Origin: Dictyostelium discoideum
Taxonomy: Eukaryota
Reading direction: 5' to 3'
Assembly (NCBI GenBank): GCA_000004695.1
Contig: CM000152.2
Span: 3,040,001 to 3,104,000, forward strand
Length of the DNA stretch: 64,000 bases
Under the pieces are notes generated by a model that saw only the letters and a list, made by a program, of their open reading frames with translations, did no database searches and was not told where the DNA came from. How positions within the stretch are numbered: position 1 is the first letter of the stretch; each line of letters opens with the position of its first letter. Made by a program: the position numbers and the translations under genes. Shown here piece after piece: positions 10,099-64,000 of this stretch.

Positions 10099-10441
10099 AT
10101 GTCAATTTCAGGTGTCGTAAAATTGGGAAAGCCTTCAAAAAAGGCAATTTTTTCAATGGTAAGCGAATTCTTTGAAATTTTTTTAATTATTATAAAAAAA
10201 CAAAAAATAAAAAAATAAAAAAAAAGTATGAAATACTAATTTAAAAATTATAGACAGACTCTGCATTAAAAAGAGTGAAAGAGATTATGAATGATAAGAA
10301 AATAGATAATTGTATTGGTCTTAGATTAGGTATTAAAGAAAGAGGTTGCTCTGGTATGTCATACACCTTAGACTTTGCAACTCAAAAGAATAAATTTGAT
10401 GAAACTGTTGTTGCTGACAAAGGTAATTAACACAAAATAAA

Positions 10442-10528
<87 letters not shown>

Positions 10529-10794
10529 GTAATAATAGTAATATTAACAATATATTTATATTTATAATGATAATAATAAATAATAATAATAATATAATAA
10601 TAGATATCAATATTATAGTAGATTCAAAAGCATTATTATCAGTTATAGGTACAGAGATGGATTACATTGAAGAACCAATTAAAAAAGAATTTATATTTAT
10701 TAATCCAAATGCAACAAATACATGTGGTTGTGGAGAATCCTTTACCACTAAAGATTTTTCAATACCTGACTTAAAACTACCAAAAAAGAATTAA
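10099..10794 (+). CDS. Iron-sulfur cluster assembly A-type carrier (IscA/HesB family), probably mitochondrial. Three exons: 10099-10158, 10254-10422, 10604-10794.
   Basis: After splicing: MSISGVVKLGKPSKKAIFSM|TDSALKRVKEIMNDKKIDNCIGLRLGIKERGCSGMSYTLDFATQKNKFDETVVADKG|DINIIVDSKALLSVIGTEMDYIEEPIKKEFIFINPNATNTCGCGESF... This carries the HesB signature, including the conserved C-G-C-G-[ES]-F motif and the upstream GCSG Cys. Intron 2 carries an (AAT)n microsatellite at 10441-10537. Confidence 0.85.
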
Positions 10795-17688: not shown

Positions 17689-17719
<31 letters not shown>

Positions 17720-17739
17720 ATAATAATAATAATAATAAC

Positions 17740-17780
<41 letters not shown>

Positions 17781-17796
17781 TAATAATAATAATAAT

Positions 17797-17827
<31 letters not shown>

Positions 17828-17877
17828 GTACATCATCAGTTGGCACTACCTCAAAATCAATTACCCCAACAAAATAA
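14033..17877 (+). CDS. PWWP-domain protein, about 1200 aa. It is Ser-rich and low-complexity with an extended Arg-Asp (RD) dipeptide repeat. At least two exons: 14033..~14231 and ~14421 or 14438..17877.
   Basis: The N-terminus MKEDKKSTNGEYVAGTNFRYGQVVYGRMPGYPQWPARVHDPS...ILLHFFSSND is a PWWP motif in a PWWP-type beta-barrel context. An A-rich intron follows. The downstream frame AWLTPDSVTDFLENHPHK... runs to 17877. It contains poly-Ser, poly-Thr, poly-Gln and poly-Asn tracts and RDRDWDRDRDRIDHRDRDWDRLDDRGRDRDFRDRD... Confidence 0.7.
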
Positions 17878-20636: not shown

Positions 20637-20678
20637 ATCAAAAATGCCTGGATGGCTCAGTAGGCAGAGCGAGCGGCT
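20637..20678 (+). repeat. Copy 2 of the 42-bp direct repeat. It continues into the intact tRNA-Asn gene.
   Basis: atcaaaaat + GCCTGGATGGCTCAGTAGGCAGAGCGAGCGGCT. See 19757-19798. Confidence 0.8.
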
Positions 20679-20718
20679 GTTAACCGCTAGGTCCATGGTT
20701 CGATCCCATGTCTAGGCG
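20646..20718 (+). tRNA. tRNA-Asn (anticodon GUU)
   Basis: The 73-nt cloverleaf folds by hand. Acceptor stem GCCTGGA / TCTAGGC, with one G-U pair. D arm GCTC-AGTAGGCA-GAGC with A-box TGGCTCAGTAGG. Anticodon stem AGCGG/CCGCT and loop CTGTTAA, giving anticodon GTT. T arm CATGG-TTCGATC-CCATG with B-box GGTTCGATCC. Discriminator G. Confidence 0.9.
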
Positions 20719-20750
20719 AAAATTTTGAAGCTCGAAAAAAATAAATCACA

Positions 20751-38455: not shown

Positions 38456-39770
38456 ATGTCAACCAAATCTATTGTTTTATTTGTTTTATTAGCAGTTGCA
38501 ATTGTCTCTGGTGCACATCAATCATGTGTTAAGAGAGTAAATGCACCAACCTCAATTATTAAATCACAACTCCCAAGTGAATATATCGATGAAGATACTT
38601 TACCAACTCAATATGAGTATGTTTTATTACTTAATGAATAATAAATGATTATTATATAAGGTTTTTACAAGTTTCTTTGATTATTCTAATGTTTTATAAT
38701 TTTTTTTTTTTTTTTTTTTTTACCCTAAAATAGTTGGAGAAATATTTCAGGTTCATCATACATCACTATTACCCGTAATCAACATGTAATTATCATCACA
38801 TATATATATATTTATATCCTTTTTCTTATTTTTACAAATTATTAACATACTTCTATAGTTACCACAATGTATGTAATAGGTTTTTTAGGTTTATTTTTAG
38901 GTTTATTATAGGATTTTTAGGATTTTTTATTTGTATTTTTTTAAAAGGATTTCAAGAAAAACAAACAATTAACATTAAAATTTTATTTAATTTTATTTAT
39001 TATTTTGAAAAATTCATTTAGATTGCGGTAGTTGTTGGGCTCATGTAGGTATTTTATTTTAATATTGTTTTAATTCATTTGATTTATAATGATATTAACT
39101 GTTTATTACTATTTATTATTATTGTTTTATTTTAGGGTACCACATCAGCTTTAGGTGATCGTATTAAAATCGGTCGTAAAGGTACTTTCCCAGAAGTTGT
39201 TCTTGCCCCACAAGTTTTATTAAACTGTGCTGGTCCAGATAATACCTGTGGTAAGTAATATGTTTTTTAAAAATAAATTTTATATTAGTAAATGATATCA
39301 TTTACTAATCATTATAAAAATAAAAAATAAAAAATAAAAAATAAAAAATAAAAAATAAAAAATAAAATAAAATAAAATAAAATAAAATAAAATAAAATAA
39401 AAATAAAAAAGATGGTGGTGATCCAACTGAAGCATACGCCTATATGGCCGCTAAAGGTATCACTGATGAAACTTGTGCTCCATATGAAGCAATTGATAAT
39501 GAATGTAATGCTGAAGGTATTTGCAAAAACTGTAACTTTGATTTATCAAACCCAACTGCTGATTGTTTCGCTCAACCAACTTATACTACTTATTTCGTTG
39601 AAGAACACGGTCAAGTTAATGGCTCAGTTGCTATGATGCAAGAAATTTTCGCTCGTGGTCCAATTGCCTGTGGTATGGAAGGTAAATATCAATTTATATT
39701 TTAAAAAATTACTATTATTATTTTATTATTATTTATTTTTCAAATCCAAGCAAAAAAAAATATTAATTAA

Positions 39771-39827
<57 letters not shown>

Positions 39828-40086
39828 TCAAAATTAAATAGTTACTGATGCATTCGAATCATACACAAGTGGTGTTTTCACCTCATCAGTTGGTTCAACT
39901 GGTGAAATTAATCACGAAATCTCAATCATTGGTTGGGGTACTGAAAATGGTGTTGACTATTGGATTGGTCGTAACTCATGGGGTACATATTTTGGTGAAT
40001 TAGGTTTCTTTAGAATTCAACGTGGTATTGATCTTTTATCAATTGAAAGTGCTTGCGATTGGGCTGTTCCAAAGAACTTAGAATAA
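38456..40086 (+). CDS. Cathepsin Z/X-like papain-family cysteine protease. Eight exons including a 10-nt micro-exon: 38456-38616, 38734-38785, 38859-38868, 39022-39045, 39136-39250, 39412-39681, 39842-40086.
   Basis: The spliced product ...[50 protein letters not shown]... aligns residue-for-residue with human cathepsin Z ([50 protein letters not shown]). Downstream motifs are GPIACGME, NHEISIIGWG and YWIGRNSWG, giving the catalytic Cys/His/Asn context. The signal peptide is in exon 1. Confidence 0.85.
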
Positions 40087-44351: not shown

Positions 44352-46922
<2,571 letters not shown>

Positions 46923-47741: not shown

Positions 47742-48055
47742 TTAGTTATCGCTATTATTAATATTTTGAGGAGTTCCATTGTTATTTGAAGTTGATGGTG
47801 AATTTGGAGAATTTGAGGGTTTTGGTGAAATGATTAAAGGGGCTGAACGTTGAGCACCTGACATACTAATGTTGCTTGGATTATTACCTCTATTTACAGA
47901 ATTTGGTGAGAGTGGATATTGTGGGTTTGGTGGATTAGAATTTGTTTGTACATCATCCATGTCATCAGAAATAATTACAGAACTTTGTTGATTGGTTGGG
48001 TTTGATGTATTCATATTATTATTATTATTACTATTATTATTATTATTATTATTTA

Positions 48056-48107
<52 letters not shown>

Positions 48108-51100: not shown

Positions 51101-53065
51101 CTGATGGATCAAATCCACTATTATTATTATTATTATTTGAATTATTATTATTATTATTATTTGAATTATTTGAATTAAATTGTGATGATCTTTTTTCATT
51201 TGGTGAAGTTTGTTGTTGTTGTTGTTGTTGTAAAAATTGAGCTTGAGCCATATCAAGTTCTGGACCTCTACGGAATTTTCTACTAATTGAGGTTAAACCT
51301 GGATTTAATTGTTCTTTAACCCAACGAGTTCTTTCTTTTTCTTTTGCTTTTGTACGTACGAATTGACAAACCCAACAAATCCATTTATTACCATTTGGAT
51401 GATTATTATGTTTCATGGCTGCAATTTCAACACAATCATTACAAAAACCAAATGCACAACCATTGTTACCACAATGATGTAAATCTTTTTTATCACCACA
51501 AATGCCACAAACTTTATCTTTTACTCCACTCGATTCATCATTAACGAAATCACCTCTTCTTAATGCTTCTGAAATTCTCACTTCACTCTTTATTGCATGA
51601 GTTTTACATGTTGGAATTAAACATGGTCTTAATATTTTTAATGATCTATCTGCTTTAACACATCCAACAAACCAACATGGTCTAATCTATAAATTTTTAA
51701 AATTAAAAAAAATAATAAAAATAATAAATAATTAGTAAAAATTATTTATTTTTTTTATTTTTTTCATTTTTTTTTTTTTTTTTAAAAACTTACATCTAAA
51801 TGATTTGGTACACTTTTTTTACTTGTTTTATATTTTGTTTTCTTTTTTGGTTGACCCATGTCTTCTTCTTCTTCTTCAAATTCTTCACCAAATTCTTCTT
51901 CACCCAAAGAATTATTTTGATTATTTTGATTATTTTGGTTATTTTGATTATTTTGATTAATTTGATTAATTTGATTATTTTGATTATTTGGATCTGATGT
52001 TGTTGTTGATGAACCTTGAGTAGCCTGAATATATTGTTGTAATTGAATTCTTTTTCTTTCTTCTGATCTTGATCCATTTGTCTTTGGTCTACCTCTAGCT
52101 GGCCTATTATTATTATTGTTATTATCATTATTACTATTATTATTATTATTATTATTATTAATATTATTATTATTATTATTGTTATTATTGTTTTGATTTA
52201 AATTTTGATTATTATTATTACTATTGTTAGTGGTGGTAGTTGTAGTAGTGGTATTATTGTTATTATTGTTATTATTATTTTGATTTTGATTTGATTGGTT
52301 TTCATCTTGTGGTTTATCATTTGTAGACATTATTGAATCATCATCTTCACCAACACCACCATCACTTTCTTCAGATAACATTAGATCTTTTTCTTCATCT
52401 GATGTTAATCTTGGTCTTTTATTGGTTTTTAATGCTGATTGAGTGTTTGGTGTATTATTTGTTGATGTTGAAATACGTTTTGGTACTTTTCCATCCGGTG
52501 TAAATATAGTTGGTGACTCTGGTGTAGTTTGTGATAAATGTGTATTTGTTGATTGTTGAACTTTTGATGGTCTCTGTAATTTTTTAAAAGTTTATAAAAA
52601 AAATAAAAAAAATAATAAAAATTAAGAAATTAGTATTTACACATTAGAATTATTATTTAAAAAAGATGTACTTACACCTCTTCTTTTACCACCAGCTGAA
52701 TTAGGATTTTGATTTTGTCTTCCATCAGCATCCTCATCATCATCTTCCATTTCATCTTCATCTTCTTCGGCACTATCAGATAATTCATGTTCTTCAAAGT
52801 TTATATCATCTTCTGATCCACTATCTTCAAGTGTAACTTGTTGTTCTTCTGTAACTTGTGAGTTGTTGTTGTTGTTGTTTTTATTATTATTATTATCACT
52901 ATTGTTATCGTTATCATTGGTGTTATTATTGTTGGTAGGTGAGGTTGTATTTTCGGTATTATTTTTGTTGTCATCATTATTATTATTATTATTATCGGTA
53001 TTGCTTTCGTTTGTTATGGTGGTTTTGGTGTCTTCATCACCTTCTATTATGTTATTGGTTGACAT
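47742..53065 (-). CDS. Class II histone deacetylase of about 1700 aa with an N-terminal acidic/N-rich region, an AT-hook, a Cys-rich PHD-like finger and a C-terminal deacetylase domain. Three exons: 53065-52676, 52573-51794, 51686-47742.
   Basis: Deacetylase motifs GFCLINNVAIGAKYA, VVDFDVHHGNGTQE, FISIHV and VLEGGYG. AT-hook RPARGRPKTNG in exon 2. Cys-rich finger CGICGDKKDLHHCGNNGCAFGFCNDCV...WICWVCQ at the start of exon 3. Minus-strand donors GGT|GTAAGT and GAT|GTAAGT with matching AG acceptors. Confidence 0.8.
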
Positions 53066-53380
53066 TTTACAAAATGTATTATATATATAAAATAAATAAA
53101 ATTTTATTTATAAAAACAAAGAAAAAAAAAAAAAAAAAAAAAAAGGAAAAAAAAGTAGTTTGGCTAATTATTTTTTTCTTTTTTTTCTTTTTTAATTATT
53201 AATATTAATAAATAAATTGGATAAATAAATGGGAAGTTTACTAATATAGGTTGGAAATTTTGAAAAAATAAAATGAAATTAAAAAAAGAAAAAAAAAAAA
53301 AAAAAATTAAAAAAATAAATAAAAAAAAAAAAAAAAAAAATGGAAGTATTAGTATTGTTTTGGAAATGGAGGATTGGTAA

Positions 53381-53435
<55 letters not shown>

Positions 53436-54040
53436 GAAAAAAGAAAAAAAAAAAAAAAAAAAAAAAAAACTTCTTCCAATCTAATTTAGAAGAAACTTGA
53501 TCCACAAAATAGGAAATAAAGGTACGCATATATATCCAATTCAAAAAAGTAATATATATATATTTACATATGATATATTGATTGTTTTTTTTTTTTTAAT
53601 TTTCACTTTGCAATACAATTCCTTTTTTCTGTTTCTTTTTCTTTTTTTTTTTTTTTTTTTCTTTCTTTACTTTTTTTTTTTGATTTTTATAAAAAATATA
53701 ATGATAAAGTGGTGTATATGATTTATAATTTGGAAAAGTTTGGAAGATAAAAAGGTTTAATTATGGTTTTTTCCAGTTTTTAAAATAAATAAAAAAATAA
53801 AATAAAAAATAAAATTTTAAAAAAAAAAAAAAAAAATAAAAAAAATAAAAAAAATAAAAAAAATAAAAATAAAAAAAAAAAAATAAAAAAAAATAAAATT
53901 TTTTAATATGGGCTTCTTATTTTTGTTACAAAAAAAAAAAAAAAATTTTTACGACTGGAAAAGTTTATTTGACTAGTGACCCGTTGTTCCATTGGAATGA
54001 TGGGATGGTAAATCTATTTTTATTTGGTATTTTTTCCTTA

Positions 54041-54054
54041 TATTATTATTATTA

Positions 54055-54121
<67 letters not shown>
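54041..54121. repeat. (ATT)n microsatellite of about 25 units in an intergenic region
   Basis: Directly visible. Flanked by long A/T homopolymers. Confidence 0.9.
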
Positions 54122-54122
<1 letters not shown>

Positions 54123-54153
54123 ACTATTATTTATAACAATGGTTATGGAAGAG

Positions 54154-54186
<33 letters not shown>

Positions 54187-55672
54187 AAAAAAACCAAATA
54201 AAAATTTTTTATGGTGGGGGAAATTTTTTAAGATAAAATTTTGTATCTTTTTTTATGTGTTTTTAATGTCCAAAAAAAAAAAATATATGAATATACGATG
54301 ATATGGATATTATTGATTTTAAATTAACATAAAGAAAGAAAAAAAAAAGGAAGAAAAAAAAAAAAAAAAAAAAGATAATTAAAAAATTTGGAAAGTTCGT
54401 TTTTTTTTTTTTTTTCCACGATGGCAACATTTTTTTTTTTTTTTTTTTGGATTAAATATCCAAACATAAGGTTTGTATATATAAAAGTGTGAATTTATAA
54501 ATTATGTTTATTTGGTATGATTTGGGTGAATGGATTATTTTAAAATTGTAAAGAAAAAATAAAGATGGAAAAAAAAAAAAAAAAAAATCCAAAAAAAAAA
54601 AGTAGTTAAAAAAAAGGTTAAATGATATTAAAAAAGATGGTAGTACTTACAAATTGGATTAAATTAATCTTTTAAAACAAATAATATTGAAAAATAAATA
54701 AAATTCTAAAATTTTTTAAATAATAGTACTTTATTAATAAAAATCTTTGCTATTGTATAAATAATCCAATCTTAACTTTTTTTTGAATTGAAAAAATGAA
54801 AAAAAAATAAAAAAAATAAAAAAAAATAAAAAAAAAATTTAAAAAAAAAAAGTTTTTTTTTTTTTTTTGTGAAAGTTTAAAATAAAAAAAAAAAAAAATA
54901 AATAAAAAAAAAATAAATAAAAAAAAAAAAAGATTGGAAATTATAACCAAACTGGTAGATCAGTTGGAAATTAATAGATTTGTGGTTTTAGTATGGGTTT
55001 GGATTATTTACTATTGAACTCCATAAAAAATATATTTTTGGTAATTATAAAATATGGGTGGAACCAATTTCGTAAAAAAAAAAAAAAGGAATATATATAT
55101 TCGGAACGTTTACCATATAGGTTGTGTGTATTGATTAACATTTTTTTATTTTTATTTTTAGATTCAAAATAAATAAAAATTTAATAAATTTCACCAATAT
55201 GTAAAGTAAATTATTGGTTGGATTAAAAGTGGATGGTGTGGCAATAAGGAAAGGAAGAAAAAAAAAAAGAAAAAAAAAAGAATCAAATTTCCAAAAAGAA
55301 AGGGATTGGATAAATAACTTACATTAATTGTTTTAATTGTTTTATAACCAAATGGATTATTACTCCTATTAAAATATATGTAAGTAATTTTTTAAAAAAA
55401 AAAAAAAAAAAAAATATAGAGATGACGGGGTTTGGTTCCTATAAAAATTTAAAATGAAATCCACAAAAATTTTTTACTTTTTTTTTTAAAAACAAAAAAA
55501 AAAAAAAAAAAAAATAAAAAAAAAAAAAAAAAAAAAAAATAAAAAAAGATCACTTAAAAAAAAAAAAATCAAAAATTATAAAAAAAAAAATATTCGAAAC
55601 GATTTTAATTAATTTTTGGATTGTTTAATTAAGATTGGATTTTTATTTAAAAAAAAAAAAAAAAAAAAAAAA

Positions 55673-57226
55673 ATGAATTTAAAAAACTTAGAAACATGTA
55701 AAGGATTAATTAAAGGATCTTATATTGATCAAGCAATTCAAGGAACATCACAATTCAATAAACTTTTAGAAACATTATTAATACATGTAGGTTTTTTAAA
55801 TTCATTTTTTAAAAAAATATAAAATAAAAAAAAAAAAAAAAAAGTAAATCTAATTTTTTTTTATATACACACATATTAACATCCAAAAAAAAAAAAAAAG
55901 AAAAAATTACCAAATATAGGATATAATGATAAAATTATTGAATTAATTTTAAATGAAATATCATTGATGGATTCAAATAATTTTATAGAGAATATTGGAG
56001 TTGGTGAAAGAGAGGGAAGAATATATAGTGGGTTAGTTGAAAAAAGACATTATGGATTTGCACATGGTATTGGTAGAAGTGGTGATATTACAGAGCAACA
56101 ACCAAAAGCAGCAGGATCAAGTTTAATTCAAAAATTAACACATTCATTAGTATTGGATGCAATGAAATTGGCAGGACTAGAACAATCATCATTATCAAAT
56201 TGTTTACTATTACCAATGGCAACTGGCATGACATTAGCATTAACAATGTTAACATTAAAATCAATCAATGCAAATAATAAAAGATATGTACTATGGCCAA
56301 GAATTGATCAAAAGTCATGTTTAAAATCAATAATAACAGCAGGACTAATACCAATTGTTATACCAAATCAATTGGATGGTGATATGATTAGAACTGATTT
56401 AGTGGCTATTGAAGACAAAATTAAGGAATTAGGTGTGGATAATATATTATGTGTTTTTAGTACAACTAGTTGTTTCGCACCAAGAGTACCAGATAAGATT
56501 ATTGAAATTTCAGAAATTTGTAAAAGATATAACATTGGTCATATCATTAATAATGCATATGGTTTACAATGTTCAAAGATACTACATAACATATCGCAAG
56601 CTTGTAAATTGGGTAGAGTGGATGCATTCATTCAAAGTACTGATAAAAATTTTATGGTACCAGTTGGTGGAGCAATCATTAGTGGTCCAAATTCCGAATT
56701 TATAGATCAAATCTCTCGTAATTATCCAGGTAGAGCAAATTCTTCACCAATTTTAGATGTTTTCATAACACTCTTATCAATGGGTAAACAAGGTTGGTTA
56801 AATTTATTAAAAGAAAGAAAAGAATTATTAATTTATTTTAATGAACAACTTTCAAAATTTGCATTAGAAAATAATGAAAAACTTTTAAATACAATTAATG
56901 AAAATAAAATTAGTTTTGCTTTAACTTTATCATCAAACAATTTTAATAATAATGAAGAAATCATCTCTAATAATAATAATAATAATAATAATACTTTTTC
57001 AATGATTGGATCAAAATTATTTTCAAGATCTTGTTCAGGTTCTAGAGTAATTGATTTAAAATCAAACAAAAAACTTTTAATTGGTGGTTTAGAATTTAAT
57101 AATTATGGTTCACATATTGATAATTATTCAACATCTTATTTAACTGTTGCTTGTGCAATTGGTATCACAAAATTAGAAATTGATACATTTATACAAAGAT
57201 TATCAAAATTATTTAATAAAAAATAA
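55673..57226 (+). CDS. O-phosphoseryl-tRNA(Sec) selenium transferase (SepSecS, selenocysteine synthase; PLP-dependent). Two exons: 55673-55786 and 55901-57226.
   Basis: [64 protein letters not shown]...RIDQKSCLKSIITAG...STTSCFAPRVPD...NNAYGLQ...FIQSTDKNFMVPVGGAII...YPGRANSSP is near-collinear with human SEPSECS ([52 protein letters not shown]...). The phase-0 intron has a GTAGGT donor and an AG acceptor at 55899-55900. Confidence 0.85.
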
Positions 57227-57321
57227 AGAAAAAAAAAAGATTTTATTTTTAAAAGTTTATAAAGAAAAATGGATTAATTATTAATTATTGATGCTTTTTT
57301 TTTTATTTTTTTTTTTTAATT

Positions 57322-58826
57322 TTAATGATGGAATGATTGACCTTCATCTTTTGAAATACTTTGAACCATTGGATGTTTATCAAAATATTCAATACTACGA
57401 TTGAAATCTTCAATTAAGAGCATTGCCATATCATGACTGAAACCATGTCTAATTAATACTCTTTGAACTACAATATCTGGTAAGTTTGGTAGAGTATAGG
57501 ATGCAATTTGCCAACCTCTATTTCTCATTCTATCTGAAAGGTCAAAGAGATTGAATTTTACTTTTGCATCTTTTTTCAATTTCCAACATGCACCTGGAAG
57601 TGCACCAGTACCATCATAAACAATATCAAAAATACCGTGTTTTTTAACTTGCTTGGAAATGAAAATACCATGATCTAGACAAGCTTGATGAACTGCGGTA
57701 TATCCACTACGACCATGGCGCAAAAAGTTATAGTACTGGCATACTATTTGACCACCTGGACGTGAGAAATTCAATGAAAATGTTGGCATATTGCCACCAA
57801 GATAGTTGACATCGAATACCAAATCCTTGTGAATGTCATTTTTACCTCTCCATACGACCCAGCCAACTCCCAATGGAGATAGACCAAATTTATGACCAGA
57901 GCCATTAATTGATTTAACACGTGGTAGTCTAAAATCCCAAACAATTTCTGGTTGAAGAAAGGGTGCAACGAAACCACCACTTGCTGCATCGACATGAATT
58001 GGTATATCAAGTCCGGTTTCTTTTTCAAATTTATCCAAAGCTTCTGAAATTCCTTTAACATCTTCATATTGTAGTGTAAATGTTACACCCAATGTTGGAA
58101 TTACACCAATGGTATTTTCATCACAACGTTTTATGGCTTCCTCTGGTGTCATTATGTAACGGTCATGTTCCATTGGTACTTCTCTTAATTCAATATCAAA
58201 GTATAGTGCAAACTTATGCCAACAAATTTGAACTGGACCAGTTACAATGTTTGGTTTATCAAATGGTTTACCTTGTTTCTTTCTATTTTCTCTCCATCTC
58301 CATTTCAAAGCCATTCCACCCAACATTGCAGCTTCACTAGATCCAGTAGTTGAACAACCAATAGTTTCAGAACTTTCTGGTGAATTCCACAAATCCGCTA
58401 AAATATGAACACAACGACTTTCAATTTCAGCAGTTTGTGGATATTCATCCTTGTCAATCATATTCTTGTCAATACATTTATCCATTAATACATGAATCTC
58501 TTTATCAAGATCAGTTTGACAAAATGTGGCCAAGTTTTGTTTTGCATTACCATCTAATAATAATTCATCAATTATTAAATCTTTTTTTAAAAATTAAAAT
58601 TAAAATTAAAATTATTAATTAACATTTTTTAATTTTTTTAAAATTATTATTATTATTATTATATAATTTTATTAATTTTATTAATTTTTTATTTACCTCT
58701 AATAACTTCTGGTTTATTTGACTCTTCTTTTAAAGAATATTTTGAAATTTCTTTTGTTGCAGGTGGTGATGCATAAGAATCATAAAAACCTTTATATTTA
58801 TTTGTTTTGACATGATGAAGTGACAT
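57322..58826 (-). CDS. Glutamate decarboxylase (PLP-dependent, group II decarboxylase). Two exons: 58826-58697 and 58580-57322.
   Basis: [11 protein letters not shown]..., [45 protein letters not shown] (the PLP lysine) and HVDAASGGF are canonical GAD motifs. A phase-1 intron joins ...PEVIR|[11 protein letters not shown]. Confidence 0.85.
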
Positions 58827-58830
58827 TTTT

Positions 58831-58866
<36 letters not shown>

Positions 58867-58909
58867 CCAACCTTATATAAATATTAAATGAAAGAAATAT
58901 TTTTATTAA

Positions 58910-58952
<43 letters not shown>

Positions 58953-59614
58953 ATTATAATAATAAAAAATAATAATAAAAAAATAAAAAATAATAAAAAT
59001 AATAAATTAATTATTTGTAAAAATCCAAATAAATAATATTTATTTTTTTTTATTTTATTTTTTTTATTTTTTTTTATGTGAACATCTATGTAAAAAAAAA
59101 AAACAAAAAAGGGGTTACCAAATTTTATTAAAATATCAAAATTTTTATGAAAACACTAACTCCTTATTTTATTATTTTTTGTTTTTTTTTCAAAACAGTT
59201 GGACAATTCAATGTAAAACTAAATTATAAGGATTGTTTGGAAGAAAATAAATATTTATAATCATTTAAATGTTTTTTTGTTGTATTAAAAATTAAATATA
59301 TTTTTATAATAATAATCTGGCAAATAATTAATATCCAAAAAAAAAAAACTACTGAATCCATTCTTTATGATATCCATTCACAAAAAGAAATTTCAGCAAT
59401 TACCAAAAGGGGTAGATTTATAAAAAAAAAAAACAATAATTAAGATTAAAAAAAAAAGATAAATACAATAATATTATTTTTATATAATTGTATATTTTAA
59501 ATTATTAAAAATAGTTTTTATATTTTTATTTTAGTATAGAGTTATATGTTTAAAAAAAAAAAATTTTATTTTTGTGAATCTTTTTTTTTTGATCGAGAAA
59601 AAAAAAAAAATTAA

Positions 59615-60367
59615 TTAAAATGGTAAATTTCCAAGAACTTTTGGTAATTGGATTGGTGATGATTTTAATTTTAATTGTTTTGAATTTGGTTGATTTAAAC
59701 AAATACTTGGTAATTGAAAGTATGAAGAATCGGCTGATGGGCTGTAGTAGTAATAGTTTGTTAATGTATATCCACTTGGTGTATTGTTGATATTTTCAGT
59801 TGAGCCAGAGATTAAAGAACAATCTGATTTATCTACAAGGAGGCCAACATTTGAAGAGTTACCTAAATCACCTGGGTTTACAGAAAACATGTCACATTGG
59901 ACAGTACCGATTTCGAAATCACCAACATACTTTAAACCATCAAGTGGTGGAACAGAGTATGATAATGGTTGTTGGAAACAATAGTCAGTGTCATTTACAT
60001 TAACACTAACGTATTGAGTGCTATTACTACCGAAACCCCAGAGACTACCTTTTGTTTTAGTATTACCATTATCGAATAAAAAGTCAACATACAATTGTTC
60101 ACCAACCAAATCGATATTAATAAAACCAGATTCAAGGAAAGATGATTGTTGAATACCACTGGGAGTTGGATAATTTCCATTGAAACTTAACATAACATAT
60201 GAACTTGCATAACTAGATGGGAGTTGGTTACTTGAAGTAAAACATTGTTGTTGGCCTACTTGATTTTCAATTTTTGAGTAATCAATTTTATTTGTACCCA
60301 TACTAAATGACTTACAACAATTTAATGCAATTGTCATTACTAAAATTAATGATAATAATAATTTCAT
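59615..60367 (-). CDS. Secreted hypothetical protein, 250 aa, single exon
   Basis: Signal peptide MKLLLSLILVMTIALNCCKSFS. Ser/Asn/Gly-rich. No recognised domain. Flanked by A/T-rich intergenic DNA. Confidence 0.5.
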   Translation of the reverse strand: MKLLLSLILVMTIALNCCKSFSMGTNKIDYSKIENQVGQQQCFTSSNQLPSSYASSYVMLSFNGNYPTPSGIQQSSFLESGFINIDLVGEQLYVDFLFDNGNTKTKGSLWGFGSNSTQYVSVNVNDTDYCFQQPLSYSVPPLDGLKYVGDFEIGTVQCDMFSVNPGDLGNSSNVGLLVDKSDCSLISGSTENINNTPSGYTLTNYYYYSPSADSSYFQLPSICLNQPNSKQLKLKSSPIQLPKVLGNLPF

Positions 60368-61330
60368 ATTTTTATTTTTTTTTTTATTTTTTTTTATTTT
60401 TTTATTTATTTGTTTTATTTATTTTTAATTTTTAATTGAATAAAAAAAAAAAAAAAAATTATTATTTATACTATTTTTTTTTTTTTAGGTTTCCGACTAC
60501 ATTTTTAAAAATGAATTCAACCAATTTAATTATCCTGGATAATACATTTTTTTGCCTGGTTATGAACTTGCAAAAATTTGTTTATTTTGAATCTTCACAT
60601 TTATTTTGAAAAAATCCGATTCCATTTTTCCGAAAATTAAAATAAAAAATGTAAGGTATTTTTTTTTTATTATTAAAGGTATATTTTGGTAAAAAAGTTT
60701 ATAAAAGAATGTTAAAGAACCTATCTCAAAAAAATAATTTTTTTATTTGGATATTTTTTAAAAATAATATCTCAAAATAATTTTTTTAAAAAAAAAAACC
60801 CCAGGCCATTACATCATAATATCAACGAAAGATTTTTGACCTGGCAATAAATTTATTTTATTGTTTCTTTTTTTTAATAATAAAAAAAAAAAAAAAAAAA
60901 AAAAAAATGGAATTTTAAATGACTAATACTTTTTTTTAGTGACTTATTTGTAATTTGAGTTTTTTTAATAAGAAAAAAAAAAAAAAAAAAAAATTTATTT
61001 AAATGAAAATACTGAAAAAAAAATAAATAACAATAAAATAAAAGAAAGAAAGAAAAAACCAAAGATAAAAATTCTTTTTTTATTTAAACTAATATTAGAC
61101 TAAAAAAAAAAAAATATTGGGATTGGGAAAAAGATTTGTTTTTTTATTATATTTTTATTTTTTTTCTTTTTTTAAAATTTTTTTTTTTATAACCAGAATG
61201 CACAAAGAATTCTTGAACAATAAAATGATTATTTATAAAGATTCAATATTATTTTTATTTTTTTATTAATTTTAAAAAAAAAACAGAACAAAACAAAAAA
61301 AAACAAATATATTAACTAATATTAAATAAA

Positions 61331-62260
61331 ATGTCAAGTGTTTCAAGAAAAGTGGCAAACGTTGCCAAAGGTTATAAAACCAAAGATGGTGCAGGTGTAT
61401 CTCTTTTACGAGTTATAGGTGGACCTATCCATTCTTAATGTTGGATGCATTTAAATCAGAGAATCCAAATGATTATATTGCAGGTTTCCCATCACATCCT
61501 CATAGAGGTCAACAAACTTTAACCTATATGATTGATGGTATAATGGCACAAAGATAACAAAGGAAATAAAGGATTATTAAAACCTGGTATGGTTCAAGTT
61601 ATGAATGCTGCAAGAGGGTATGTTTTTAAATTATTATTAAAAAATAAAACAAAATACTGATAATAATTTAAAATTAAAAATATATAGCATTATTCACTCA
61701 GAAATGCCAAAACAAGTTGAAGGTAAAATGTTTGGATTTCAATTTTGGTTAAATTTAGCAGCAGTAGATAAAATGTCAGATCCATGGTATAAAGATCTTG
61801 AAAGCTAAAGAGATTCCAGAAGTTATTACAAATGATAAAAAAGTTAGAGTTGTAGCAGGTCATTATGAAGGTGTTGAAGGTATAGTTAAAGGTTTACCAG
61901 TTAATCCAATATTTTTAGATGTTAAATTATCACCAAACACTAAATTCTCTGTTGATATACCAGATTTGGATCATAATTCATTCGTTTATGTTTTTGAAGG
62001 TGAAGGTAAATTTGGTCCAGAAGGTTATGAAACAGTTGTTGGTGATCTACAAATTGGTGTTTTAGAGAATAAAGATAGTTACAATTAAAGATAATGAAAT
62101 TACTCCAAATAAATTAGATGCTGGTGAAAATGGTGTTAGATTCCTCTTTTTATCAGCAAAACCATTAAGTGAACCAATCGCCCAACATGGTCCATTCGTT
62201 ATGAATACACAAAAAGAAATTCAACAAGCTTTCTTTGATTACCAAATGGGTAGATTTAAT
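61331..62260 (+). pseudogene. Pirin-like (cupin) gene, apparently inactivated. There are 4 frame disruptions in about 900 bp plus one intron (about 61617-61686).
   Basis: Segments in three frames are each collinear with human pirin: MSSVSRKVANVAKGYKTKDGAGVSLLRVIGGP | PFLMLDAFKSENPNDYIAGFPSHPHRGQQTLTYMIDGIMA | HKDNKGNKGLLKPGMVQVMNAARG-(intron)-IIHSEMPKQVEGKMFGFQFWLNLAAVDKMSDPWYKDLES | KEIPEVITNDKKVRVVAGHYEGVEGIVKGLPVNPIFLDVKL...GVLENKDS | ...GVRFLFLSAKPLSEPIAQHGPFVMNTQKEIQQAFFDYQMG. The junctions are: a 3n+2 loss between IGGP and PFLML; a 1-nt deletion in GCACA(c)AAAGAT; a 1-nt T insertion in GAAAGC(t)AAAGAG; and a shift in AAAGATAGTTACAATTAAAGATAAT. Confidence 0.6.
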
Positions 62261-62842
62261 TAAAATCAATATTAAAAAAAAATAATAATAAAAAGATTAA
62301 AAAAAAAATTGTACTATAATTAATGTAAAGTGGTTATTAAATTATTAACCAAGCACCAATTAAACAGAAATTATGCTGTTGAATTAGAAAATTAAAAAAA
62401 AAATATATATAAATAAATAAAATCTTCTAAATTAAACTTATGATTGATATATTATTGTAGATATAATAAATTTTTTTTTTTTTTTATTTTTTTTTTGTTT
62501 GTTATATTACAAATCCATATCCATATCTGGTGTAATGTCAATGCTATTATGTTTTTTTTATATGAAAAATGTCTAAGAGGTCATAGTCTATGGCTTTGTA
62601 TTTTCAATGAAATCCCAAACCAATGTAGTCTATGTTAACTTCATGGTCTTTTTTCTTATTGGAAGGTATGATTGGTATGAATTTGTTTATTGATTTTAAT
62701 TCTTTTGTGTGACCAATTCGTGTTTCCGCATGTTTATTTGATGATGGGCCCTTAAAATTTGGAAGTATTAACATAGGATTTGGTTTGGAACAATGTTCCA
62801 AAAAATAAAATAAATTTCCAAATCAAACCTTGATTATCAATG

Positions 62843-62853
62843 ACATCGAACCA
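62843..62853 (-). promoter_or_regulatory. Candidate ex-B box about 30 bp downstream of tRNA-Arg on the minus strand
   Basis: Minus-strand GGTTCGATGTC (plus gacatcgaacc) resembles the B-box consensus. Confidence 0.3.
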
Positions 62854-62883
62854 GCGATCTTATTGTACAAGATATTAAAATTT

Positions 62884-62956
62884 CACCCATTGTGGGTCTC
62901 GATCCCACGACCTGCAGCTTAGAAGGCTGCCGCAATTCCAACTTTGCTAAACGGGC
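62884..62956 (-). tRNA. tRNA-Arg (anticodon UCU), possibly a variant or weakly functional copy
   Basis: Reverse complement GCCCGTTTAGCAAAGTTGGAATTGCGGCAGCCTTCTAAGCTGCAGGTCGTGGGATCGAGACCCACAATGGGTG folds as a cloverleaf. D arm GCAA/TTGC. Anticodon stem GCAGC/GCTGC with loop CTTCTAA, giving anticodon TCT. T arm GTGGG-ATCGAGA-CCCAC, with A at position 54. The acceptor stem has two G-U pairs, including 1-72. Confidence 0.7.
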
Positions 62957-63536
62957 TTTGTTGGAAAGTTATTTTTAATGCATCAAAAAATTAGGGTATT
63001 TTCCAATTAAAAAAAAAGTATTTTAATTAAAAAAGTGAACTATCAATTATTCAACCTATGGGAGGAGATCCGTTTAAAAGGTATTGATAATACTGGCAGT
63101 GGCTTGGACGCTATCAGGTTTTAAACGAAAAGCTTGAACCTTAATTTTGTCACAAACACTACAAGAGATTGCCATATATTTCTCAAATCAAATGGATAGA
63201 AGTTTACAGAAGTTTTCAATCCTCACCAATTTCAGTGGCTTTTGAATTTGGTAAATTTTTATTAATATTTGGATTTTTAAAAAAAAAAACGAAATTATCC
63301 AGATTTTAAAATTAAAAAAAAACAATAAAAAAATAAAGAAAAAAGGTAATAACTATTTAATTTAAATTTTTTGTTTTTTGTTCCCATTCGAATTCTTAAG
63401 TAAAGAAATTTCTTATTAATATTATTTAAAAAAAAAAAGTTAACTGAAAACAAGTTGGAGAATATTGTCAAAATCGAGTTTGCAGAGGTGTTGGTGAAAA
63501 CTTTCATTCAAGAACATTTTGTTCAAATTATTAAAT

Positions 63537-63618
63537 ATTCATTCATTCATTCATTCATTCATTCATTCATTCATTCATTCATTCATTCATTCATTCATTC
63601 ATTCATTCATTCATTCAT
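63537..63618. repeat. (CATT)n tetranucleotide microsatellite of about 20 units
   Basis: Directly visible perfect tandem repeat. Confidence 0.95.
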
Positions 63619-63911
63619 TATCTATTGATAACTAGATCTGATAAAAAAAAATCTTAATAAAATAATAGTTTTGATTAAAAACCTTTTTTATTTTATTTTT
63701 TTTTTTCTACATTGGACACTTAAATAAATTCGTATTTTTATTTTATTTTATATATAAAAATTAATTAATTTTGTAATAAAAAGAATTATTTAGTTTGAAG
63801 ATAATTTTTTTTTTTTTTTTTTTTTTTACCAAAATTTAATAAATAAACTAACTTTTTGTTTTTTTTTTTTTTTAAAAATTTTTTAATAAAGATTTTTTTT
63901 TTTTTTTTTTT

Positions 63912-64000
63912 TTATTGTTGAGCACAAGAAACACCTTGTGGATGACCACCATGTTGATCTTCATCATCGTCATCGTAAGCAGAGGATCTACTATGTGAAT
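63912..64000 (-). CDS. 3' end of a DnaJ/Hsp40 subfamily-A (Ydj1/DNAJA-like) gene with a C-terminal CaaX box. The gene continues beyond the window.
   Basis: The minus-strand frame ends ...SHSRSSAYDDDDEDQHGGHPQGVSCAQQ*, which resembles the DNAJA1 C-terminus ...AYEDDEHHPRGGVQCQTS, including the farnesylation motif C-a-a-X (CAQQ). Confidence 0.5.
   Translation of the reverse strand, partial: SHSRSSAYDDDDEDQHGGHPQGVSCAQQ

Follow-up and report, generated by a model that had tools for sequence, protein, structure and literature searches.

The window analysed here, a stretch of 64,000 nt of Dictyostelium discoideum DNA, carries at 61331-62263 on the forward strand a sequence that reads as a pirin gene along its whole length but changes frame repeatedly. 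This raises the question of whether the gene is dead, is still expressed by some unusual route, or is intact in the organism and broken only in the assembly. We consider the locus to be very probably (at roughly 93 %) an unprocessed pirin-family pseudogene, derived from duplication at the DNA level, whose function was lost in the AX4-like lineage.

Pirin homology and gene structure

The open segments of 61331-62260 were stitched together into a conceptual protein of 286 residues. This translation matched the Pfam families Pirin (PF02678; E 4.8e-30, 104 bits, cut-off 26.1) and Pirin_C (PF05726; E 3.8e-21, 75.8 bits, cut-off 27). It was also collinear end to end with residues 5-273 of human pirin (PDB 1J1L, E 1.6e-48), which bears out an earlier claim that the sequence can be aligned to the human protein as far as HGPFVMNT. 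The motifs HPHRG, IIHSEMP and HGPFVMNT all fall inside this alignment, and a 6-residue gap lies exactly between IGGP and PFLML. The N-terminal metal-ligand motif (His, His ... His, Glu) can be followed in the conceptual translation only, where ‘fpshphrg’ and ‘giihsemp’ correspond to ‘fpdhphrg’ and ‘gilhaemp’ of human pirin. In a search of a collection of 5.8 billion proteins, the top matches of the conceptual protein were Dictyostelium pirins; no AX4 protein matching the window pirin locus was present in that collection, which fits with the locus not being annotated as coding in AX4. A literature search for ‘Dictyostelium’ and ‘pirin’ returned no work on this locus and only a microarray table, in which a ‘pirin-like protein’ appears among the entries down-regulated on Pseudomonas (PMC2474670).

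The remnant consists of two exons separated by one genuine intron, arranged as follows.

61331-61617, + strand: exon 1 remnant, beginning at the ATG and including the N-terminal cupin motif HPHRG
61618-61687, + strand: genuine intron of 70 nt, GTATGT...ATAG, 9 % G+C, at a position conserved in all intact copies
61688-62263, + strand: exon 2 remnant, with the IIHSEMP motif, the C-terminal Pirin_C domain and a shifted stop codon TAA at 62261-62263

The intron also shifts the frame and was absent from the earlier note. G+C makes up 23 % of the window as a whole, and its intergenic DNA contains long A/T runs. The first premature stop, a TAA at 61436-61438, closes a 35-aa ORF at 61331-61438 in the list of open reading frames; translation from the ATG thus ends after 35 codons and no pirin protein can be made. 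Where an intact family member would have a single uninterrupted bicupin coding sequence, the locus has this stop and four internal frameshifts. The bicupin architecture and the HxH...H.E motifs are common to the conceptual translation, human pirin (1J1L and others) and the bacterial quercetin 2,3-dioxygenase-type bicupins YhhW and YhaK; from the window copy itself, however, no bicupin can be translated. Since the sequence hallmarks of the family are found only in a conceptual translation and the intact coding sequence is wanting, we would class the pirin copy as a relic of the Pirin family and not as a functional member.

Intact syntenic orthologues in two divergent strains

Intact 295-aa pirins were found at the same syntenic position in two further assemblies labelled D. 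discoideum, namely ACTFIR_003132 (P0001; GCA_054859385.1, locus L002) and ACTFIW_002548 (P0131; GCA_054859355.1, locus L005). The flanking genes on both sides are the same as in the window: genes for SepSecS, a pyridoxal decarboxylase and an ependymin-like protein lie upstream, and genes for DnaJ and CLASP lie downstream. The restored window copy is 95-96 % identical to these orthologues at the amino acid level and about 95 % at the nucleotide level. Both orthologues are intact and under strong purifying selection, whereas the window copy is broken.

The two assemblies are unexpectedly distant from the window strain for members of one species. BLASTN comparison of the loci with the window, filtered against trinucleotide-repeat matches, gave about 4 % mismatches and many indels over 51371-64000, and dS in the ependymin-like gene between the ACTFIR/ACTFIW lineage and the window strain was about 0.16. 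Such divergence is far above what is usual within D. discoideum, and ACTFIR and ACTFIW may represent a cryptic lineage or species. A literature search returned no paper describing the new Dictyostelium assemblies.

The matches that the filter addressed stem from trinucleotide-type repeats, located in the window at ~1190-1380, ~10430-10610, ~17690-17830, ~39760-39830, ~45270-45530, ~48000-48105 and ~54030-54140. In BLASTN searches the long repeats of the window cross-match each other as well as repeats in other loci, and they are probably coding repeats of the poly-Asn/Gln type typical of Dictyostelium genes.

Six indels private to the window copy

Lesions were called by DNA alignment against the two syntenic orthologues, the intact paralogue L003A (described below) and copies labelled D. 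dimigraforme and D. cf. discoideum. Six indels proved private to the window copy, and at each of these sites the five intact sequences, which span three species labels, agree with one another.

61426-61430 (after 61426), + strand: lesion 1, a 19-bp deletion in which ATCCCATCAAAATCAGTGG was lost; codons 33-38 plus 1 nt are gone and the frame moves by -1
61545-61547, + strand: lesion 2, a 2-bp deletion, ATG[GA]GCAC; most of codon 79 (Glu) is gone
61797-61807, + strand: lesion 3, ATATTCCAGCTGAAGAG changed to ATCTTGAAAGCTAAAGAG, a net gain of 1 nt together with several substitutions
62076-62079, + strand: lesion 4, a 2-bp deletion, GATAG[AG]TT, in codon 233 (Arg)
62122-62123 (after 62122), + strand: lesion 5, an in-frame 6-bp deletion of GTCGCA, which removes Val-Ala (codons 249-250)
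62255-62263 (run at 62255-62257), + strand: lesion 6, loss of 1 bp from the terminal T run, with TTTTAA changed to TTTAATTAA

Four of the six indels shift the frame within the body of the gene. Lesion 1 is flanked by a 4-nt ATCC microhomology at 61427-61430. Lesion 3 creates a TAA at 61806-61808 that is in frame for a ribosome arriving in the incoming frame, and a further TAA in the incoming frame follows lesion 4 at 62086-62088. The effect of lesion 6 is confined to the end of the protein, where one Asn codon is gained and the stop is moved by one codon to 62261-62263.

The earlier note had counted four frame changes, and alignment to the intact orthologues bore out all four internal frameshifts; its descriptions of three of them (a 3n+2 loss, an indel at GCACA-AAAGAT and a duplication near KDSYN) were inaccurate, and it lacked the 6-bp deletion after 62122 and the terminal 1-bp deletion. 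The loss between IGGP and PFLML does amount to about six codons, as the 6-residue gap in the protein alignment confirms, but at 19 bp it is 3n+1 in length and not 3n+2. The supposed A-run indel at GCACA-AAAGAT is the 2-bp deletion of lesion 2, and the supposed duplication or shift near KDSYN is the 2-bp deletion of lesion 4; both lie outside homopolymers. For the indel placed at GAAAGCtAAAGAG, the single-nucleotide change stands, as a +1 insertion, although it is part of the substitution cluster of lesion 3. The further statement that the aligned frames hold no other stops was upheld, the restored frame being free of in-frame stops; a run of 286 stop-free codons would arise by chance at this base composition with P about 8e-13.

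The pirin remnant belongs to a duplicated cassette

The remnant lies head-to-head with an ependymin-like gene, and BLASTN of 57001-64000 against a locus at about 4.15 Mb (L003) showed that the two genes are copied together.

59615-60367, - strand: divergent neighbour of the Ependymin_amoebozoa family, intact, 250 aa, identical to AX4 DDB_G0280201 / XP_641301.1
59420-62436, both strands: duplicated cassette of about 3 kb, comprising the ependymin-like gene (-), the shared intergenic region and the pirin (+)

The identity of the neighbour to the AX4 gene assigns the window to chromosome 3 of D. discoideum, or of a virtually identical strain. This head-to-head pair is both dispersed and tandemly amplified at several sites on chromosome 3, including L003:7500-18500 and L009:1169-7030. 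The L009 site, at about 3.76 Mb, holds two tandem cassettes, one of which encodes the intact P0122 (AX4 XP_641148.1). At L003, four ependymin-like genes accompany three pirins: an intact one (P0141/P0002, which corresponds to AX4 XP_640827.1) and two from which ~340-380 bp have been deleted internally. The gene pair was also seen at loci L007 and L008, and D. citrinum likewise has a head-to-head ependymin-like/pirin pair. Because the remnant keeps the parental intron at its conserved position, and because the cassette homology extends across the intergenic region and into the neighbouring gene, it is not a retrocopy.

The earlier note had raised the matter of an intact pirin paralogue elsewhere in the genome, and two are present on the same chromosome, XP_641148 and XP_640827, at distances of 0.6 and 1 Mb. 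Both XP_641148.1 (Q54UY3, P0122) and XP_640827.1 (Q54UE9, P0002) have two exons with the intron at the same codon as the window copy, both stand head-to-head with an ependymin-like gene, and both share 90-95 % amino acid identity with the restored window copy. They differ from it in being intact over 295 codons and in lacking its six indels, its premature stops and its 11 private amino acid changes.

Other broken pirins were observed among the paralogues. The decayed copies at L003:10867-11442 and L003:13437-14075 (copies B and C) are annotated as proteins of 210 aa and 141 aa, and P0138 (ACTFIT_011504) is a 116-aa pirin fragment with a frameshifted C-terminus. All three stem from the same cassette amplification as the window copy and are likewise non-functional by sequence, but they owe their inactivation to large internal deletions or truncation, while the window copy is full-length and carries small indels only. 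The pirin family is evidently gaining and losing copies.

At the window locus itself, the pirin half of the cassette is intact in ACTFIR and ACTFIW and dead in the AX4-like lineage. The ependymin-like neighbour is under purifying selection, with an omega of 0.13 in comparison with strain ACTFIW. The consistent pairing of the two genes hints at co-regulation or a functional link. A bolder and rather doubtful extension of this idea would be that the pair forms a co-regulated two-gene module, repeatedly co-amplified on chromosome 3 of the D. discoideum group, with a copy number and intactness that depend on lineage; this would suggest functional coupling of a secreted ependymin-like protein with a pirin, and fluctuating selection on dosage.

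Rfam and tRNA scans of the window returned two tRNA genes only, and no RNA feature within the pirin pseudogene. The tRNA genes are tRNA-Asn(GTT) at 20645-20719 (+) and tRNA-Arg(TCT) at 62884-62956 (-), the latter about 620 bp downstream of the remnant. The strains align poorly over 62436-62840, the stretch that separates the cassette from the tRNA-Arg gene. Dictyostelium retroelements use tRNA genes as targets for insertion.

Relaxed constraint and the age of the decay

Substitutions were polarised by parsimony, with paralogues and sister-species copies as outgroups, and gave the following counts.

Window branch: 11 nonsynonymous, 10 synonymous, omega about 0.28
Sister ACTFIW branch: 1 nonsynonymous, 2 synonymous, omega 0.13
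Pairs of intact copies: omega 0.055-0.13

The 11:10 ratio of the window branch is significantly higher than that of pairs of intact copies (Fisher p = 0.017-0.027, with 0.017 for the comparison with 7:30), on small counts. It also lies above the constrained expectation (binomial p = 0.004) and below full neutrality (p = 0.006). Since the ratio falls between the constrained and the neutral expectation, constraint would have been lost only part-way along the branch: the simplest reading of the substitutions is that the window copy remained under constraint for the greater part of the period after the AX4-like and ACTFIR/ACTFIW lineages split, and that its release from constraint covers roughly the last fifth of the branch, an estimate based on small counts. 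A branch omega well under 1 likewise points to constraint along most of the branch. Gene conversion among paralogues could distort this reconstruction, the synonymous changes being unevenly split (10 for the window branch, 2 for its sister). The remnant has an indel:substitution ratio similar to that of its mostly non-coding flanks, where 164 gap openings accompany 291 mismatches, as expected for neutral decay in this genome.

These results bear on the two parts of the earlier proposal of recent pseudogenization. Pseudogenization is borne out by the intact syntenic orthologues and the intact paralogues in the same genome, set against six private indels and 11 private nonsynonymous changes in the window copy. 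‘Recent’ holds in a relative sense, in view of the 95-96 % identity to the orthologues, the absence of an in-frame stop from the restored frame and the intermediate nonsynonymous:synonymous ratio of 11:10.

Alternative readings of the locus

A dead coding sequence might still matter to the cell if it were a transcribed pseudogene with a regulatory RNA role, in antisense or small-RNA control of the pirin paralogues, or if the remnant were kept for a shared bidirectional promoter. The 5' intergenic region that it has in common with the constrained ependymin-like gene is retained, and transcription into the remnant is plausible. Its sequence conservation, however, is no greater than young age alone would give, and we regard a role of this kind as very unlikely. 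More loosely stated, the remnant may have an expressed non-coding role or yield a short product of 35 aa. Our reading is that it probably retains no residual function.

Slimmer still are the chances that the gene continues to work because its lesions are removed by splicing of four additional mini-introns, as in the GenBank gene model ACTFIT_010888 (KAM9949668.1, P0015, 234 aa). This model is annotated as protein-coding at L001:10001-10933, which corresponds to 61331-62263 of the window; when it was mapped onto the window, each lesion was found to be bridged by a proposed intron, and the four introns fell at 61397-61461, 61538-61571, 61764-61794 and 62038-62065. Every lesion does have a GT..AG pair around it, and the 234-aa product still matches Pirin and Pirin_C. 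The proposed introns nevertheless measure 65, 34, 31 and 28 nt and have an exon-like G+C content of 29-36 % (exons 32 %), against 70 nt and 9 % for the real intron. In each intact copy the sequence homologous to them is coding, and splicing them out would cost the product about 60 residues from the conserved cupin beta-strands. At about 30 nt, introns would also be far smaller than those normally spliced in Dictyostelium. The model is therefore probably an artefact of gene prediction.

Less probable again is an assembly or sequencing artefact, which would make the frame breaks errors, for instance in homopolymer runs, in a gene that the organism has intact. The genome is 77 % A+T and rich in long homopolymers, and the earlier note had offered poor sequence quality in such runs as an alternative to decay. 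An independent chromosome-level assembly, GCA_054883475.1 (CM142509.1, locus L001), spans 51286-64000 of the window and is identical to it across the pirin remnant, every lesion included; as this assembly may represent the same or a near-identical laboratory strain, the identity confirms the sequence and not the spread of the dead allele in the species. Over the 12.7 kb compared, the two assemblies do differ in homopolymer lengths in intergenic DNA, but the differences are confined to seven intergenic A/T runs of at least 12 nt and two single-nucleotide variants. The latter, at 58871 and 58900, fall in an A/T-rich intergenic stretch beside long homopolymers and may reflect genuine differences between strains or an error in one or the other assembly. 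In addition, five of the six lesions (the 19-bp, 6-bp and two 2-bp deletions and the multi-substitution cluster) are not homopolymer length changes, and the lesions are accompanied by 11 private amino acid changes. Because the lesions recur unchanged in an independent assembly and most of them lie outside homopolymers, we reject sequencing error as their source.

Recoding, whereby programmed ribosomal frameshifting or RNA editing would yield a full-length pirin, is the least probable of all, as it has nothing in its favour beyond the collinearity of the open segments, requires four shifts of differing sign and size, leaves missing the conserved residues lost in the 19-bp and 6-bp deletions, and is at odds both with the conventional encoding of the protein in orthologues and paralogues and with a nonsynonymous excess that points to lost constraint.

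A presumably tolerated loss in an amplified gene family

The homology, the reproducible anatomy of the lesions, the intact state of orthologues and paralogues and the relaxation of constraint were all observed, and together they point to an unprocessed pseudogene. Its history would begin with the copying of the ~3-kb ependymin-like/pirin cassette to several sites on chromosome 3 and its amplification in tandem. In the AX4-like lineage, the pirin copy at the window locus would then have lost its function, while its orthologue remained intact, with 295 codons, in the two divergent strains. The ependymin-like partner DDB_G0280201 has stayed intact and constrained, and only the pirin half of the cassette has died. 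The loss was presumably tolerated through the closely related intact paralogues, and decay would have followed in the form of six small indels and an excess of amino acid changes. We infer both the redundancy and the order of these events.

In sum, the locus presents as an ordinary, textbook unprocessed pseudogene in a bicupin family, and its relevance lies mostly in annotation: it should be labelled a pseudogene and ACTFIT_010888 should be corrected. It also offers a datable and well-polarised loss of a paralogue in a recently amplified gene family. As intact orthologues survive in sister lineages, the remnant may further serve as a neutral marker or, on a small scale, illustrate how indels drive decay in a genome of extreme A+T content.
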